Below, in pieces: positions 453 to 20,236 of a DNA stretch of 35,398 nucleotides. Position 1 is the stretch's first letter. The number at the start of each line of letters is the position of its first letter. The stretch is from a virus. Its lineage: Duplodnaviria; Heunggongvirae; Uroviricota; Caudoviricetes. Position numbers and translations under genes: made by a program. Where the stretch lies: the IMG/VR virus record IMGVR_UViG_2541047928_000016, one strand, 5' to 3'. The notes under the pieces were generated by a model. It saw only the letters and a program-made list of their open reading frames with translations, had not been told where the DNA came from and ran no database searches.

Positions 453-3010
453 CGTCCACCTCCGGAGAACAGGCCACCATCACGCATCTGTGTCTGAATT
501 TCATCACGGGCACCCTTGCGGGCCATGTCATACACCGCCTTCAGAGCAGCCGGACCTATCTGCCCGTTCGTGCCGTCGTTGTTAATCACCACATGGTTAT
601 TCTGCTCAAACTTCCCGGACGCCTGCGACCGGCTGTCCGCCAGGCTGCCCGGTGTACCGACATAACCACCGGTGGCATAGCCGCGCATCAGCCGGTAGAG
701 ATTCCCCACGCCAATCCGGCTGGTTGCCTCCTTCGTGAAGACAAATTCACCACGGTGAACAATCCCCGCTGGCTCATATTTGCCGCCGGTTCCCGTAAAT
801 CCCCCGGTTGCAAAATGGAGTTTCGCCGCAGCGGCCTGAATGGCTGTACCGCCTGACGCGGATGCGCCGCCACCAACAGCCCCGCCAATAGCGCTGCCGA
901 TACTCCCGACAATCCCCACCATTGCCTGCTTAAGCAGAATTTCTGTCATCATGGACAGCACGGAACGGGTGAAGCTGCGCCAGTTCTGCTCACTGCCGGT
1001 CAGCATCGCCGCCATATTCTGTGCAATTCCATCAAAGGTCTGCGTGGCTGCACTTTTTACCTGCGACATACTGTCCGTGGCGCTCTCTTCCCACTCACTC
1101 CAGCCGGACTTCAGGCCTGCCATCCAGTTCCCGCGAAGCTGGTCTTCAGCCGCCCAGGTCTTTTTCTGCTCTGACATGACGTTATTCAGCGCCAGCGGAT
1201 TATCGCCATACTCCTCCTTCAGGCGCTGTTCCGTGGCTTCCTTCGCTGCCTGCCGGTCAGTCAGCCCCCGGCTTTTCGCATCAATGGCGGCCCGTTTTGC
1301 CCGTTGCTGCTGTGCGAATTTATCCGCCTGCTGCGCCAGCGCGTTCAGGCGCTCCTGATACGTAACCTTGTCGCCAAGTGCAGCCAGCTGGCGTTTGTAC
1401 TCCAGCGTCTCATCTTTATGCGCCAGCAGGGATTTCTCCTGTGCAGACAGCTGGCGACGTTGCGCCGCCTCCTCCAGTACCGCGAACTGACTCTCCGCCT
1501 TCCACAAATCCCGGCGCTGCTGGCTGATTTTCTCATTTGCTCCGGCATGCTTCTCCAGCGTCCGGAGTTCAGCCTGAAGCGTCAGCAGGGCAGCATGAGC
1601 ACTGTCTTCCTGACGATCGCCCGCAGACACCTTCACGCCGGACTGTTTCGGCTTTTTCAGCGTCGCTTCATAATCCTTTTTCGCCGCCGCCATCAGCGTG
1701 TTGTAATCTGCCTGCAGGATTTTCCCGTCTTTCAGTGCCTTGTTCAGTTCTTCCTGACGGGCGGTATATTTCTCCAGCGGCGTCTGCAGCCGTTCGTAAG
1801 CCTTCTGCGCCTCTTCGGTATATTTCAGCCGTGACGCTTCGGTATCGCTCTGCTGCTGCGCATTTTTGTCCTGTTGACTCTGCTGTTCAGCCTTCTTTCG
1901 GGCGGCTTCAAGCGCAAGACGGGCCTTTTCACGATCATCCCAGTAACGCGCCCGCGCTTCATCGTTAACAAAATAATCATCCTTGCGCAGATTCCAGATG
2001 TCGTCTGCTTTCTTAAACGCAGCCTCTGCCTTAATCAGCATCTCCTGCGCGGTATCAGGACGACCAATATCCAGCACCGCATCCCACATGGATTTGAATG
2101 CCCGTGCTGTCCTGTCTGCCCAGGTTTCCAGCGTGCCCATGTTCTCTTTCAGGCGTCGGGTCTGGTCATCAAACCCTTTCGTTGCGGCCTCGTTCGCCGC
2201 CTGCAATGCCCCGGCTTCATCGCCGGAACGCTGCAACTGAGCAACATACGCAATCTGCTCCGCCGTCACGTTATGGAACTGGCGCGCCATCGCCGTCAGC
2301 CCCGACGTCGGGTCAGTGGTCAGCTTCCCGAAGGCTTCAGCGACCTTGTCCACCTCCACGCCGGATGCAGAGGAGAAACGCGCCACACTCTGGCTGATGG
2401 ACGCAATCTGAGCCTCACCGCTTACCCCCGCCTTAACCAGTGCGCTGAGTGACTCGCTGGTCTGGTTAAACGTCAGCCCTGCCGCCTGCCCGGCTCTGGA
2501 CAGGACCAGCATACGATCTGCCGTCAGACCCGACTGATTACCGGAAAGGACCAGCGTTTTGTTGAAATCGGACAGGGTTGAGTTACCCTGATACCAGGCA
2601 TACGCCAGCGCACCGGTCGCCACCGCCAGCGAGGTGGCCCCGACCATCGGCAGGGTGATCGCACCGGCAAGCCCCCGGAACATGGGGATCATCCCGCCGA
2701 AGGAGTCCTTAACCTGACCACCCTGTTGCAGCAGGATCAGCCACGGACTTTGCCCGCCTGCAAGCTGCGTGGCCACGTCGGTGAACTGCGCAGGCAGCAT
2801 ACGCATGGCAGCTTTATACTGCCCGACGGAAATCCCCGCTTTCTGTGCAGCCAGCGCCTGCCGGTTCATCGACTGTTCAACGACTGCCGCTGTTTTTTTC
2901 GCATCAGTTTCCGTACCGGAAAAATGACGCCTGACTCTGGCCATCTGCTCGTCAAATCTGGCCGCATCCAGACTTAAATCAACGACCAGATCGCCTACCG
3001 GTTCAGCCAT
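449..3010 (-). CDS. H: Tail tape measure protein H (853 aa)
   Basis: 853-aa ORF, same length as lambda gpH; coiled-coil/Ala-Gln-rich middle and Gly-rich C-terminus; synteny. Confidence 0.95.
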   Translation of the reverse strand: MAEPVGDLVVDLSLDAARFDEQMARVRRHFSGTETDAKKTAAVVEQSMNRQALAAQKAGISVGQYKAAMRMLPAQFTDVATQLAGGQSPWLILLQQGGQVKDSFGGMIPMFRGLAGAITLPMVGATSLAVATGALAYAWYQGNSTLSDFNKTLVLSGNQSGLTADRMLVLSRAGQAAGLTFNQTSESLSALVKAGVSGEAQIASISQSVARFSSASGVEVDKVAEAFGKLTTDPTSGLTAMARQFHNVTAEQIAYVAQLQRSGDEAGALQAANEAATKGFDDQTRRLKENMGTLETWADRTARAFKSMWDAVLDIGRPDTAQEMLIKAEAAFKKADDIWNLRKDDYFVNDEARARYWDDREKARLALEAARKKAEQQSQQDKNAQQQSDTEASRLKYTEEAQKAYERLQTPLEKYTARQEELNKALKDGKILQADYNTLMAAAKKDYEATLKKPKQSGVKVSAGDRQEDSAHAALLTLQAELRTLEKHAGANEKISQQRRDLWKAESQFAVLEEAAQRRQLSAQEKSLLAHKDETLEYKRQLAALGDKVTYQERLNALAQQADKFAQQQRAKRAAIDAKSRGLTDRQAAKEATEQRLKEEYGDNPLALNNVMSEQKKTWAAEDQLRGNWMAGLKSGWSEWEESATDSMSQVKSAATQTFDGIAQNMAAMLTGSEQNWRSFTRSVLSMMTEILLKQAMVGIVGSIGSAIGGAVGGGASASGGTAIQAAAAKLHFATGGFTGTGGKYEPAGIVHRGEFVFTKEATSRIGVGNLYRLMRGYATGGYVGTPGSLADSRSQASGKFEQNNHVVINNDGTNGQIGPAALKAVYDMARKGARDEIQTQMRDGGLFSGGGR

Positions 3011-3443
3011 ACCGGACTCCTCCTGCGATCCCTTCTGATACTGTCATCAGCATTACGTCATCCTCCGTCATGTCCGCCACATCCGGGGAAGCGGGGATAA
3101 CTTTATTCCCGTCCGGACCAAAGCGGACGCCTCCGGCAAGCCCTGCCGCTTTCTGCATCAGCACATCATCTTCAGGCTCTTCGTCAGCCTCACACCGATT
3201 CAGCAGACTGAAATCCAGCGGATGCATCTCCGGATCGCTGAAAAACAGGCTGAGCACGGTGTACGTCAGCCCGGAAAAGTGCATATCCAGCAGAACATCA
3301 TGAAAATAATGGGTACTGTAAAAACGGTGCCAGTCGGCATACTCCGTGGATGACATCCCGGCAAGCATGGCGCGCCAGTCGGGTCGCCCCATCTCACGCG
3401 CCAGTTTCAGGGCAAAACTCAGCTCACCGTCGAACACTTTCCC
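3003..3443 (-). CDS. T: T segment of the G-T tail assembly chaperone, expressed by -1 frameshift from G
   Basis: Overlapping ORF in -1 frame relative to G, beginning at the GGGAAAG slip site and ending 8 nt inside H; no canonical start of its own (track start is GTG). Confidence 0.75.
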   Translation of the reverse strand, partial: GKVFDGELSFALKLAREMGRPDWRAMLAGMSSTEYADWHRFYSTHYFHDVLLDMHFSGLTYTVLSLFFSDPEMHPLDFSLLNRCEADEEPEDDVLMQKAAGLAGGVRFGPDGNKVIPASPDVADMTEDDVMLMTVSEGIAGGVRYG

Positions 3444-15179: not shown

Positions 15180-15450
15180 GATGTTACCGTAGTATGTGAG
15201 TATCCATCGAATAGACACCAAGCAAAAAAGCTCCCGAAGGAGCCTTCATTTTCACTTTTTTAAATCCAACGACAGACGGCTGGCATTTAAGTATTGTGAA
15301 ATATTATCAAATGTAATCATCATTGATTTACAAAAGATACATTTTGCCCCGAAAGGATTCATGTCAGAAACATCAAAAGATGATGTTCTATACTGGGAAC
15401 CATGACAACACGGGCATCTAAAGTGAATATGGTTTGTAATATTGTCTACC

Positions 15451-15663
15451 TCAAAGCGCCACTACATGAACAGCGGCAGGACCTTTAGGTCCGTTCTCAA
15501 TACCAAATTCAACTTCCTGATTCTCAGTTAATGTTTTGAAATCGTTGCTCTGAATTGCTGAGAAATGGACAAACACATCTTTGCTGCCATCTTTCGGCGT
15601 GATGAAACCAAAACCTTTTTCAGGGTTAAACCATTTCACTAAACCAGTCATTTTGTTAGACAT
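15451..15663 (-). CDS. cspI: Cold shock protein, CspA family (70 aa), CspI-like
   Basis: [70 protein letters not shown]; RNP1 motif KGFGFI and RNP2 VFVHF. Confidence 0.9.
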
Positions 15664-16024
15664 AATTATTACCTTTTGAAGAAATTAGCCCTTGGGCAGA
15701 ATGGTCCGAAAAAAATATCAGAGAGAAAAACCAACAAGGAAATCTCAAGAGGTACAAATAATAAAATTATAACAATGACTGCTTCAGATAAATTTGTAAC
15801 AAACCAGAACACCATTAACGCATGATTAACCACCCATAGCAAGGATTACTTTTGTAAAGAAAAACACAGCAATGAAAGAATAGCTTTATTTATTAATAAA
15901 ACGTGTCATTCTGATTAAGACCTTTTATCTTACCCTTAAGATTTCAGGAATTTTGGCTCATGGAAGAGTCCTTTTTATTTAAATTTTACATTCCGCGATG
16001 TAAATGTTCCGATTTAATATTACC

Positions 16025-17048
<1,024 letters not shown>

Positions 17049-17052
<4 letters not shown>

Positions 17053-17360
17053 AGATATTTATGATGAGGACGCTCGTGCTTATTGGCAGGATTTTCAATC
17101 TTAAAGGAGTACTGATGCTGCAGATAAGACTCAACTTTTTCTGACAATTTTTCTGCTACTTCCAGGAAGACTTGCCGGACGCTCCTTCTGGCTGCTGCCT
17201 CATAAAACTCCAGCGCAGCTCCTTCAACACGGTCCATGGCGACATCCAGGTCAAAAATTTCACCGTCAAAGCGTTCTTTGTCCTGTAAGGCTACAGTTAC
17301 CGTAACTTTATTCTCAAAATTACGGACTCCTTTCACAACCAGTTCATAGTCTTGAGTCAT
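17049..17360 (-). CDS. ydfR: YdfR-like protein (DUF1327-type), 103 aa, between holin and endolysin
   Basis: 103-aa ORF MTQDYELVVKGVRNFENKVTVTVALQDKERFDGEIFDLDVAMDRVEGAALEFYEAAARRSVRQ...; position equivalent to ydfR in Qin. Confidence 0.65.
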
Positions 17361-17364
17361 TGGA

Positions 17365-17580
17365 TTACTCTCCTCTCGCAGCCTTACGCCTGTCTTCTTT
17401 AATCTTGAAATAAAGATTTGTCAGATACGTCAGCAGGCCAAAAACCAGGCTACCCAGCACACCGATTGCAGCCCACTGTGACGGAGTTACTTTATCGAGT
17501 AACTGCAATGCCCAGAAACCAGCATTACCCGCCGATGTGCCATAGGCAACACCTGTTGTTAACTTATCCATTGATTTCAT
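17365..17580 (-). CDS. Class II pinholin (phage 21 S-type) with dual-start motif MKSM (71/68 aa)
   Basis: From ATG 17578-17580: [71 protein letters not shown]; two TM segments; track ORF begins 25 codons further upstream. Confidence 0.85.
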
Positions 17581-17799
17581 ATCCTCACCCCGATGTACAC
17601 GGATGGTGCAATATGTTTGAAAAGATCGGAGTCTACGGGGTAGTTTTGACAGCACACGTTGTTCTCAACGGCGCTAAAAAAACATACACATTAAAAATGT
17701 GGGTAATTATTTTGAAAGAAAGTCATATATAAAATAATAATACGAGAAATGTTTTCATATTTAGTGTACTGTATACGGCCATTTATACAGGAAAAGCCT

Positions 17800-17970
17800 A
17801 TGTCAGAACGTAAAAACTCAAAATCACGCCGTAATTATCTCGTTAAATGTTCCTGCCCAAACTGCACCCAAGAGTCAGAACACAGTTTTTCAAGAGTACA
17901 AAAAGGTGCCCTTTTGATCTGCCCTCATTGCAACAAAGTATTCCAGACAAATCTTAAAGCTGTAGCCTGA
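17800..17970 (+). CDS. Small Cys-rich (zinc-ribbon-like) protein, 56 aa, antisense to the late-operon leader
   Basis: MSERKNSKSRRNYLVKCSCPNCTQESEHSFSRVQKGALLICPHCNKVFQTNLKAVA; CxCx2C ... Cx2C; AGGA 9 nt upstream of ATG 17800. Confidence 0.45.
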   Translation: MSERKNSKSRRNYLVKCSCPNCTQESEHSFSRVQKGALLICPHCNKVFQTNLKAVA

Positions 17971-18030
17971 TTGATTTTATTAGTAACAAGTATTTTTTAT
18001 ATTTTAATAATATATTTAAAGCAGATAATA

Positions 18031-18056
18031 AAAAACCCGCCTGAGCGGGTTTGAGA
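18031..18056 (-). terminator. Rho-independent terminator downstream of cspB (hairpin CCCGC-N4-GCGGG then T5 on minus strand); weaker in the plus direction
   Basis: Plus strand aaaaacccgcctgagcgggtttg. Confidence 0.5.
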
Positions 18057-18333
18057 TTGTGGTGCTTTTTGTGGGAGTCATCCACTTACGCACTTTGTTT
18101 TGCCATGCCAGCAGTTAGCTTCTGCTGTAAAACTATTCATGCAGCAAACCTGCACTTCACCACAATGGTTAGCATACTTTTCCTGATTAAGATTTTGCCA
18201 AATATGCTAGCCATTGTTTCATGTATTGGACCTCCTTACTTTTTATTAAAGAGATCCAATATTCACTACTCTGTCCGTATCTCTACTCAGGCATCAGCCT
18301 TCTTCGTTATCGTATACAGACGAGCGATGAATT

Positions 18334-18549
18334 TTAATCAGTAATGATGACATTTGCTGCTGCAGGACCTTTAGCACCACTCTCTATAGAGAAGGTAACC
18401 TTTTGACCTTCAAATAAGGTTCGATAATTATCATTCTGAATCGCAGAAAAATGCACAAACACATCTTTACTACCATCAACAGGAGAAATAAAGCCGAAAC
18501 CTTTATCAGCGTTAAACCATTTTACTAAACCAGTCATTTTATTTGACAT
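18334..18549 (-). CDS. cspB: Cold shock protein, CspA family (71 aa), CspB-like
   Basis: [71 protein letters not shown]; long upstream untranslated region (18550-18700) typical of cold-shock mRNAs. Confidence 0.9.
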
Positions 18550-18849
18550 TCTACATTCCTTAACTTGAGCCTTTCGGCATAAATGGTTTGCATAACAGAA
18601 ACGACTTCGTACTTAATTGGAGAGACTCAAAGAAGGAATAAGTGAATAACACCTGAAATGAGAACTGCTTTAGTAAACTACTTCGTATATCGTCTGTTCT
18701 TCAAACCGACGCAATCATTAACGCATAGTTGAACATATGAAGCAATGTTTATTTTAGACATCCAGCCATCTTCAACCCCATCAAAAAACTATAGCTTTCT
18801 TCAGGAACGTGTGTATAGTGCGCCAAGTTATCAGTATTAAGGAATTTTT

Positions 18850-19062
18850 TTGTCCCGTAAAATGACAGGAATTGTCAAAACCTTTGACGGCAAAAGCGGC
18901 AAGGGTCTTATCACCCCATCCGATGGTCGTATCGATGTCCAGCTTCATGTTTCAGCGCTCAATCTCCGCGATGCAGAAGAAATTACCACCGGATTACGCG
19001 TGGAATTTTGCCGGATAAATGGTCTGCGTGGCCCTTCAGCTGCCAATGTTTACCTTTCATGA
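18850..19062 (+). CDS. cspF: Cold shock protein family member (70 aa), CspF-like; track start is TTG, alternative ATG at 18862
   Basis: [70 protein letters not shown]; divergent from cspB. Confidence 0.8.
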
Positions 19063-19356
19063 GCTATATTAAAGCTTTAATTTCAGGCCCCATCGGATCA
19101 CACATGGAGAGTTTTTATGAATAACCCCGTCTGTCTTGATGACTGGTTGATTGGCTTTAAAAGCTTATGCTGTACTTTGGCCGTAATAGCTCTGCTAATA
19201 ATATAATAAGCAGACTCATTGTGTTTAGGGACATTGTACTGGAAGAAAACATTTTAAACATCAGGCAAATAACCAAGTCACCAGCTAAATAATAAGTTAA
19301 CAGACATGAGTCCCGGGATGAGATTCAACATTACCATTGCCCCATTTAAAGCACAA

Positions 19357-19380
19357 AACCCGCTCATCAGCGGGTTTTCT
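19357..19380 (-). terminator. Bidirectional intrinsic terminator; on the minus strand a candidate tR' about 40-55 nt downstream of the putative late promoter; on the plus strand it terminates cspF
   Basis: Plus strand aaaacccgctcatcagcgggttttct: 5-bp GC stem, A-tract upstream and T-tract downstream on both strands. Confidence 0.6.
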
Positions 19381-19423
19381 ACTTTTTCTTAACGTCGGGT
19401 ATACAAAGCCCATCGTTGAAAAA

Positions 19424-19452
19424 ATTTTATCCATATTTTTTGAAAAATGCAA
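19424..19452 (-). promoter_or_regulatory. Candidate late promoter PR' immediately downstream of Q: -35 TTGCAT, 17-nt spacer, -10 TAAAAT (minus strand)
   Basis: Reverse complement of 19424-19452 is TTGCATTTTTCAAAAAATATGGATAAAAT; sits 32 nt after the Q stop codon. Confidence 0.5.
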
Positions 19453-19483
19453 ACATCATGTCGCCATCTTCAGCAAAAATCAT

Positions 19484-20236
19484 TTATCTCGTCACCTTCC
19501 TCAATTGCGCTTCCGCGTATGCTTCTTCCTGCCAGCACTTTGTTACCAGTTTACCAATGACGTCCGCATACCCCTTATACCACTGATAATCGGTCAGGTC
19601 TGGTACCAGCTTCTGGACATGACGTCGTGCCAGCGTGGTCGGTAAACGACTAAACCGGTTTCCATTACAACGCCCACAAATCTTATATACCGGTACGCCA
19701 TGAAACCGGGTTCTTTTTTCATCCAGAACAATCCCTTTACCCTTACACCCTCTGCACGCTGTGCTGGCTTCGCCCTTACCATGGCAATGCTGACATAGTT
19801 CCTTCACCCATTCTTCCTTGATTACAGATTCCCCGCGTCTGTAGTGTTTCACCACTTCGCGCAATACATTATAAAATCCCGTACCTGAACAATGCTCACA
19901 GCGAGCCTTACTTGCCGCAGACCTGGAGTAATCAGCAAAGGCAAAACTCACGAGGTAAGGAATAATCTGTAACCGGATTTCTTCACTCAATTTGTTCAAT
20001 GTCGGGTTATCCAGTGCCATCGCGTAATTTAGCAGGCCTTCAATCGCAAACTGAGGGTCCTGAACACCAACTTTTGCCAGAAATAAGGCCAACCCAAGTG
20101 GTGCTTTCGACTGCACCATCCCCTGCGCTGCCATTACATCCGTAATTGTTAAACAACCGGTGCCTGTCGCTGGAGCGTCATCGCTCAATTTTGGAGATTT
20201 TGGGGAGTAATATTTTGGTAAGGCTTCAAGGTTCAT
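19484..20236 (-). CDS. quuQ: Late-gene antiterminator Q (phage 82/21 Q family), 250 aa
   Basis: From ATG 20234-20236: MNLEALPKYYSPKSPKLSDDAPATG...; Cys/His zinc-binding cluster (CEHCSGTG, CQHCHGKGEASTACRGCKGKG, CGRCNGN). Confidence 0.85.
   Translation of the reverse strand: MNLEALPKYYSPKSPKLSDDAPATGTGCLTITDVMAAQGMVQSKAPLGLALFLAKVGVQDPQFAIEGLLNYAMALDNPTLNKLSEEIRLQIIPYLVSFAFADYSRSAASKARCEHCSGTGFYNVLREVVKHYRRGESVIKEEWVKELCQHCHGKGEASTACRGCKGKGIVLDEKRTRFHGVPVYKICGRCNGNRFSRLPTTLARRHVQKLVPDLTDYQWYKGYADVIGKLVTKCWQEEAYAEAQLRKVTR

Follow-up and report, generated by a model that had tools for sequence, protein, structure and literature searches.

The 35,398-nucleotide (nt) stretch of viral DNA analysed here (IMG/VR record IMGVR_UViG_2541047928_000016, Caudoviricetes; hereafter "the window") carries, between the gene for the late-gene antiterminator QuuQ and the lysis genes, a candidate late promoter PR' with its terminator tR', followed by a long leader with cold-shock genes. 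The 2.3 kb around this region are 100% identical to the cryptic prophage Qin of Escherichia coli K-12 MG1655 (NC_000913.3; an NC_000913.3 position equals the window position + 1,623,005), and at least 80% of these 2.3 kb was found in 1,615 of 5,426 complete E. coli genomes. In the sense of the late operon (minus strand), the order of genes is ydfU, quuQ/ydfT, ynfS (opposite strand), cspF (opposite strand), cspB, ynfU (opposite strand), essQ, ydfR, rrrQ, rzpQ/rzoQ and cspI. The corresponding Pfam content comprises Q (PF03589), two cold-shock domains, YnfU, a phage-21-type holin, DUF1327 and a lysozyme. The features at the head of the late operon are as follows.

19484..20236, minus strand: quuQ (ydfT), late-gene antiterminator Q (Pfam, PDB match, RefSeq annotation)
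19424..19452, minus strand: candidate PR' core promoter (sequence, promoter scan 9/12, alignment with lambda PR', conservation)
19409..19417, minus strand: predicted +1 (A19417) with the putative sigma70-dependent pause element AACGAT (+1..+6) and GGG (+7..+9) (identity with lambda)
19351..19378, minus strand: tR' intrinsic terminator (fold, scan, Term-seq 3' end, conservation)
19351..19417, minus strand: predicted constitutive PR'-tR' transcript of ~67 nt, unannotated in K-12 (predicted +1 and measured 3' end)

By its database matches QuuQ is a protein of the lambda Q family. It matches Pfam PF03589 (E 3.6e-54) plus DnaJ_CXXCXGXG (E 1.3e-08) as well as the solved Q-lambda loading complexes PDB 7UBM/7UBN (E 4.6e-36), and it is 94% identical to the Q of phage SfV and 33% identical to lambda Q end to end, the latter with a 48-residue gap. 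Compared with lambda Q, residues ~121-168 of QuuQ form an insertion of ~48 residues at the zinc-finger region, which adds CxxCxGxG motifs. The gene lies directly upstream of the candidate promoter and on the same strand; its TAA stop codon occupies positions 19486-19484 of the minus strand, and the -35 hexamer begins 31 nt past it.

The candidate promoter itself consists of the -35 hexamer TTGCAT (19452-19447), a 17-nt spacer and the -10 hexamer TAAAAT (19429-19424), after which the sequence continues with TCAACGATGGG. It scored 9/12 in the promoter scan, and the surrounding 4 kb is AT-rich. A sequence-only reading of this DNA had described the same hexamers and spacing on the minus strand as a near-consensus promoter 32 nt after the Q stop, with a strong hairpin and T-tract following within about 50 nt. 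Hexamers, strand and location after Q are as described there, and the hairpin starts 45 nt past the -10 hexamer and runs into a GTGCTTT tail. The distance from the Q stop has to be corrected to 31 nt, and the term near-consensus holds for the -10 hexamer and not for the -35 hexamer, which matches TTGACA at three of six positions (four of six if read as TTTGCA with an 18-nt spacer).

Comparison with phage lambda gives the site its likely identity. The sequence AACGATGGG begins 6 nt past the -10 hexamer, and the same nine bases stand at the same distance in lambda PR'; the longer TCAACGATGGG corresponds to lambda PR' -2..+9, again with equal spacing from the -10 hexamer. This 11-mer has a single exact match in the 35-kb window, and the 29-nt promoter core is also unique within the window. 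In a pairwise alignment of Qin and lambda PR', 52 of 88 columns are identical, with the -35 hexamer, the -10 hexamer and the start in register. Because hexamers and start are aligned over these 88 columns, the two regions are homologous and not just alike in layout, and the alignment indicates that this homology includes the sigma-dependent pause element. In lambda, AACGAT at +1..+6 is a -10-like element that is re-bound by sigma70, which pauses the polymerase at +16/+17 in a state that is recognised by Q. In Qin, AACGAT stands in what would be the first transcribed bases, 6 nt past the -10 hexamer and followed by GGG. By analogy, a sigma-dependent pause would be expected at Qin PR' as well, and the 17-nt spacer between the -35 and -10 hexamers is the presumed Q-binding region. 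The predicted start is A19417 (NC_000913.3 1642422(-), ~1640446 in U00096.2).

An intrinsic terminator lies shortly past the promoter. The tR' hairpin, AAAACCCGCT-GATG-AGCGGGTTTT at 19378-19355, is followed by GTGCTTT (tail GTGC to 19351), and the terminator scan calls it bidirectional. Term-seq of MG1655 recorded a minus-strand 3' end at NC_000913.3 position 1642356, i.e. window position 19351 (Adams et al. 2021, PMC7815308 supplementary file 1), which is the C of ...AGCGGGUUUUGUGC just past the hairpin. This 3' end is present in LB at an optical density (OD) of 0.4, in LB at OD 2.0 and in M63, and was classed as 'orphan' (PMC7815308). Since the predicted +1 lies at 19417 and the measured 3' end at 19351, the resulting RNA would be ~67 nt long; its predicted fold consists of a small 5' hairpin and the terminator (minimum free energy -26.2 kcal/mol, z -5.55). 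Compared with the K-12 annotation, the only new item is this predicted PR'-tR' RNA, to which the 'orphan' 3' end would belong.

Within the first ~27 nt of the PR' transcript (19391-19417, minus strand), the pause-element bases AACG.UGGG can take part in a 5'-terminal hairpin. In its 3' arm, groups of phages differ only by transitions that preserve pairing (98.8% of cells paired), and the lambda PR' transcript (lambda stretch 788-812) can pair in a similar way. The folding z-scores of this 5' hairpin are weak (-1.5 and -2.5), and it is without two-sided covariation.

The 170 bp past Q have close relatives, likewise located after Q, in the phages SfV, Ayreon, mEp460, Tritos, 2H10, HannyBb and PhiR42_1, in Salmonella phages and in fifteen Stx2c-converting phages (Stx, Shiga toxin); in SfV and Ayreon the tR' hairpin is annotated as a terminator. 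In phage alignments the -35 hexamer, the spacer, the -10 hexamer (TAAAAT, TAAGAT or TAGGAT) and positions +1..+17 show next to no variation; phages differ in the +18..+40 stretch and in the terminator loop, and hairpin and U-tract are kept. The sequence AACGATGGGCTTTGT is invariant in the related phages found by blastn, except for a degenerate Q-adjacent copy in HannyBb, and within the -35 hexamer and spacer these phages differ only at single spacer positions (Tritos, 118970_sal3 and F1055).

When IMG/VR was scanned with a degenerate form of the promoter, at least 120 loci matched. Among the matches listed, a QuuQ-type Q (90-100% identity) stands upstream in 119 of 120, and the gap between Q and promoter is an identical 31 nt in 112 of these 119, the other seven having a 1.7-kb insertion. 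These matches (120 viral contigs) comprise 11 promoter variants with an invariant -35 hexamer and spacer, an invariance largely fixed by the search pattern itself, and a -10 hexamer of the form TARRAT. Hairpin and U-tract are kept in nearly all of 28 sequence variants among the matches listed. The spacer between the hexamers is conserved together with Q.

In HannyBb (1311-1460 and 2989-3150) and in the seven IMG/VR loci with the insertion (of 119 among the matches listed) the PR'-tR' module is duplicated. The Q-abutting copy of HannyBb is degenerate, with the -10 hexamer AAAGAG and with AATGATGAG replacing AACGATGGG, and an intact Qin-type copy lies 1.7 kb downstream of it, past inserted DNA and preceded by a remnant of the 3' end of Q. 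Because an intact copy stands 1.7 kb downstream in the duplicated loci, PR' need not abut Q directly.

From the predicted +1 it is 1,837 nt to the ATG of essQ (17580), which lies 1,903 nt past the Q stop, in agreement with the sequence-only reading, which had placed the holin 1.8 kb further on. That reading also listed the genes and signals to be crossed on the way: cspF (antisense), cspB (sense), a second terminator and an antisense small open reading frame (ORF), here ynfU. All of these are present, and it had overlooked one further antisense gene, ynfS. The features of the leader and of the lysis cassette are given below.

19117..19206, plus strand: ynfS, gene for a 29-aa small protein, antisense to the leader (RefSeq annotation)
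18850..19062, plus strand: cspF, cold-shock-domain gene, antisense to the leader (Pfam cold-shock domain, E 5.6e-22; annotation)
18318..18710, minus strand: cspB mRNA, sense to the leader, with a cspA-type thermoregulator 5' untranslated region (UTR) and the coding sequence 18334-18549 (Rfam, Pfam)
18219..18266, minus strand: hairpin downstream of cspB (fold -18.4 kcal/mol, z -5.0; Term-seq 3' ends 18221/18219 at its base)
18033..18052, minus strand: second terminator, bidirectional, AAACCCGC-TCAG-GCGGGTTT and then TTTATTAT (scan; fold -12.8 kcal/mol, z -4.0)
17800..17970, plus strand: ynfU, gene for a small zinc-ribbon protein, antisense to the leader (Pfam PF23499 YnfU, E 6.4e-31; annotation)
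16025..17580, minus strand: lysis cassette, the first late genes (Pfam Phage_holin_2_1, DUF1327, Phage_lysozyme; annotation)
17365-17580, minus strand: essQ, pinholin, ATG at 17580 (Pfam Phage_holin_2_1; annotation)
17049-17360, minus strand: ydfR (Pfam DUF1327; annotation)
16519-17052, minus strand: rrrQ, lysozyme (Pfam Phage_lysozyme; annotation)
16025-16522, minus strand: rzpQ/rzoQ, spanins (annotation)

The cargo of this leader has signals of its own, namely the cspA-type 5' UTR of cspB and the terminators and 3' ends inside the cargo. The 5' UTR matches Rfam RF01766 with 158.8 bits (gathering score 78; E 1.6e-42), CspB matches the Pfam cold-shock domain with E 9.8e-32, and a Rho-dependent 3' end has been mapped in this UTR at window position 18629 (PMC7815308). 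The most abundant 3' end of the region is found behind cspB, at 1641224/1641226(-) or window positions 18219/18221, with Term-seq scores of 0.6 to 2.5 million (PMC7815308). These scores are 5 to 20 times those of tR', and the base of the hairpin lies ~113 nt past the cspB stop. A perfect Shine-Dalgarno sequence, TAAGGAGGT (18238-18230), is sequestered in this hairpin, which is without a U-tract after it; an unannotated ORF of 11 codons, MKQWLAYLAKS (18222-18187, minus strand), follows the Shine-Dalgarno sequence. At the terminator 18052-18033 no minus-strand Term-seq 3' end was seen in uninduced cells; the only one is on the plus strand (1641060, on the ynfU side). A weak Rfam Trp_leader match at 18027-18111 (21.7 bits, gathering score 41, E 0.64) was dismissed, as it represents the terminator hairpin. 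Among the antisense genes, YnfS has been detected by epitope tag (PMC6001520). Since a second cspA-type thermoregulator match (114 bits; 15424-15808, minus strand) covers cspI just past the lysis cassette, cold-shock cargo is present on both sides of the lysis genes.

Blast homology between Qin and phages with other cargo ends at window positions 19355-19348, which is the end of tR'. Because homology stops there, Q-PR'-tR' is one mosaic unit and the DNA beyond the terminator is exchangeable. Leader lengths and cargo were compared at 80 loci with an identifiable holin among the matches listed. Between +1 and the holin start lie 419 to 4431 nt (median 1781 nt), and at least five cargo classes occur: cspF/cspB/ynfU in 34 loci, a single 85-aa ORF in 19, orf47 with a DNA methylase in 13, lipoprotein with orf47 and methylase in 6, and others in the remainder. 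Phage PhiR42_1 (from ECOR13) has the leader with the csp genes at 100% identity and phage HannyBb at 98.5%. Given this near-identity and its presence in Tritos, the csp leader is not a decay product of a dead prophage. The Tritos leader has a 258-bp deletion (junction 3192/3193) and is without window positions 19053-19310, i.e. ynfS and the last codons of cspF; as Tritos carries its leader in this form, this part of the cargo is dispensable for a phage. A cargo-bearing leader of 1.8 kb is ordinary for lambdoid phages. We propose that the csp and ynf genes are autonomous cargo ('morons') with their own signals, inserted where such phages usually swap DNA, past tR' and ahead of the lysis cassette.

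Taken together, the lambdoid prophage Qin very probably has its late-operon control region and leader in this stretch, with a PR'/tR' switch of the lambda type. The PR'-tR' assignment of the sequence-only reading is thus upheld by the sequence elements and their homology with lambda PR', the family of QuuQ, the linkage with Q, the Term-seq 3' end at tR', the conservation of the module, its mosaic joint and the single occurrence of the motif, with no second copy near the holin. The genes essQ, ydfR, rrrQ and rzpQ (17580-16025) follow downstream on the same strand.

By homology with lambda we infer a start site, a pause, binding of Q and a read-through that depends on it, along with any effect on the cargo genes, and the switch would operate as follows. 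Without Q, a sigma70 polymerase would initiate at PR' (predicted +1 A19417) and pause near +16/+17, where sigma region 2 would re-bind the -10-like AACGAT in the early transcribed DNA; transcription would then terminate at tR' and yield the short RNA of ~67 nt. QuuQ, where available, would bind the spacer DNA that separates the two promoter hexamers and load onto the paused polymerase, making it resistant to terminators. By the geometry of the locus, a Q-modified polymerase must cross cspF, cspB, the second terminator and ynfU. Having passed tR', it would proceed antisense across ynfS and cspF, continue through the cspB 5' UTR with its Rho-dependent attenuator, cspB itself and the 3' hairpin 18266-18221, then pass the 18052-18033 terminator and the antisense ynfU and finally enter essQ-ydfR-rrrQ-rzpQ.

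Several observations weigh against this scenario. The -35 hexamer is weak, and promoter-like matches in the surrounding 4 kb occur at chance level (10 versus 7.8 +/- 3.1 in shuffles), so that hexamers alone prove nothing; a promoter significance derived from the hexamers alone was accordingly rejected. The start at A19417 is a prediction from sequence, and Qin is defective in K-12, where QuuQ may never be expressed. Neither tR' nor the 5' hairpin shows two-sided covariation, their stems being mostly invariant or changed on one side, and in the covariation tests of both hairpins shuffle controls were indistinguishable from the observed values. Support for the structures thus comes from conservation and folding energy. 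Furthermore, one more minus-strand Term-seq 3' end was recorded in LB at OD 2.0 only, at window position 19183 (1642188), which is 168 nt beyond tR' and antisense to ynfS. It could reflect some Q-independent read-through of tR' or a separate promoter, and promoter-like matches are found nearby at 19227-19198.

Part of these observations would also suit a scenario in which the hairpin at 19378-19355 is the terminator of a ydfU-quuQ mRNA, the 3' end stems from upstream transcripts and the hexamers are incidental. Term-seq gives 3' ends only and is silent on the origin of the RNA, the regional hexamer matches do not exceed chance, and the +1 at 19417 is predicted. However, the initial transcribed sequence equals lambda PR' +1..+9 at the correct spacing, the -35 hexamer, spacer, -10 hexamer and +1..+17 are better conserved across phages than +18..+40, and the equivalent hairpin of lambda is the tR' of its 6S RNA. 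In addition, transcription from upstream appears to end before ydfU, where one of the strongest Rho-dependent terminators has been located (PMC9160355) and a further Term-seq 3' end lies at 1644572 (PMC7815308). It is therefore unlikely that upstream transcription feeds the tR' 3' end; the 67-nt RNA would start at PR' and would not be the tail of the quuQ mRNA, and the terminator-only scenario is in our view highly improbable. A somewhat different view, which we also consider unlikely, accepts PR' and tR' and sees in them, for K-12, only a small-RNA gene that stands alone in the manner of StxS or lambda 6S, with Q inexpressible, no late read-through and a leader of historical interest. The 3' end is indeed seen in each of the three conditions, all of them uninduced, a regulatory role of short PR' transcripts has a precedent in StxS (PMC7547250), and Qin is annotated as cryptic with strong termination reported upstream of ydfU-quuQ (PMC9160355). 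Against this, quuQ, PR', tR' and the lysis genes are intact and 94-100% identical to deposited phage genomes, and the Qin short RNA is not known to have a target, to bind Hfq or to give a phenotype. A small RNA would also be compatible with the PR'/tR' switch, of which it is the expected by-product.

The least probable of the scenarios considered assigns the lysis genes mainly to a promoter of their own within the ~220 nt that separate ynfU from essQ; PR' transcripts would then have no need to cross the cargo. A promoter-like TTTATA-16-AATAAT (9/12) is found there at 17733-17706 on the minus strand, and without a promoter at this place the polymerase would have to get past the strong terminator at 18052-18033. 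Yet such a match is expected at chance level, the search of the window found no copy of the promoter or pause motif near essQ that would point to a second Q-dependent promoter, and no Term-seq 3' ends between 1640300 and 1640999 indicate an active unit. All related phages examined keep PR'-tR' beside Q (with the 1.7-kb insertion in seven loci) and not beside the holin, whatever the cargo, and a Q-modified polymerase overrides intrinsic as well as Rho terminators, as established for lambda Q. Each of the three scenarios has less support than the lambda-type PR'/tR' switch. Beyond that switch, it is conceivable, if rather doubtful, that the ~67-nt RNA acts in trans like StxS; separately or additionally, Q-dependent transcription could serve to switch cargo expression at lytic induction, boosting CspB by overriding the Rho-dependent attenuator in its 5' UTR, while head-on antisense transcription silences cspF, ynfS and ynfU.

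The kind of system is already known: the module is homologous to PR'-6S-tR' of lambda and is also found in phages of the Stx2c, SfV and mEp460 types. Qin shares with lambda a Q gene of the same family immediately upstream, a homologous promoter geometry with an identical TCAACGATGGG, a terminated short RNA (predicted in Qin) and a lysis cassette downstream. In contrast to lambda, the short RNA has a predicted length of ~67 nt instead of 194 nt, the spacer (in lambda the Q-binding region) has a different sequence, QuuQ has additional zinc-finger motifs in an insertion of 48 aa, and the leader to the holin measures 1.84 kb, with antisense and sense cargo, versus ~0.6 kb.

Lambdoid phages are well known to carry cargo between tR' and the lysis genes. 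In Shiga-toxin phages, as in Qin, it occupies this position, and there it is reached by Q-antiterminated transcription; the cargo is stx, whereas Qin carries cold-shock genes at this site, of which two or three are antisense. Lysogens of Stx phages constitutively produce a short PR' transcript (PMC7547250), and stx is the textbook case of cargo expressed through Q antitermination (PMC7547250; PMC6266700). In an Stx2c phage the same Q-PR'-tR' module is followed by a lipoprotein gene, a methylase gene and, ~2.6 kb downstream, stx2A/stx2B. In Stx1/Stx2a phages, StxS arises as a 258-nt transcript and is processed to 74 nt, compared with the predicted 67 nt in Qin; the two are analogous in their PR'-tR' origin only. 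SfV, Ayreon and mEp460 have PR'-tR' DNA that is 83-86% identical to that of Qin, with a terminator annotated there in SfV and Ayreon, but their cargo after tR' is unrelated (orf47 and DNA methylase, with or without lipoprotein).

The lambda qin hybrids of Espion et al. (1983) reportedly showed that the Q-lysis segment of Qin can replace that of lambda. DLP12 is a different prophage from Qin, and the two are likened here by description. The Q of DLP12 belongs to a different type from QuuQ. Its Q-late promoter-lysis segment has been captured by phage 434B, i.e. a block from a K-12 cryptic prophage is functional in a viable phage (PMC9119081).

Our results leave the understanding of lambdoid late control unchanged, and their value lies mainly in annotation. 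The 'orphan' Term-seq 3' end of K-12 is explained as the tR' end of the probable Qin late promoter transcript, and cspB, cspF, ynfS and ynfU are placed within what would be a Q-controlled late leader, which about 30% of complete E. coli genomes carry. As the same module is present in Stx2c phages, K-12 could also serve as a safe model for the Q-PR'-tR' module found upstream of stx2c.

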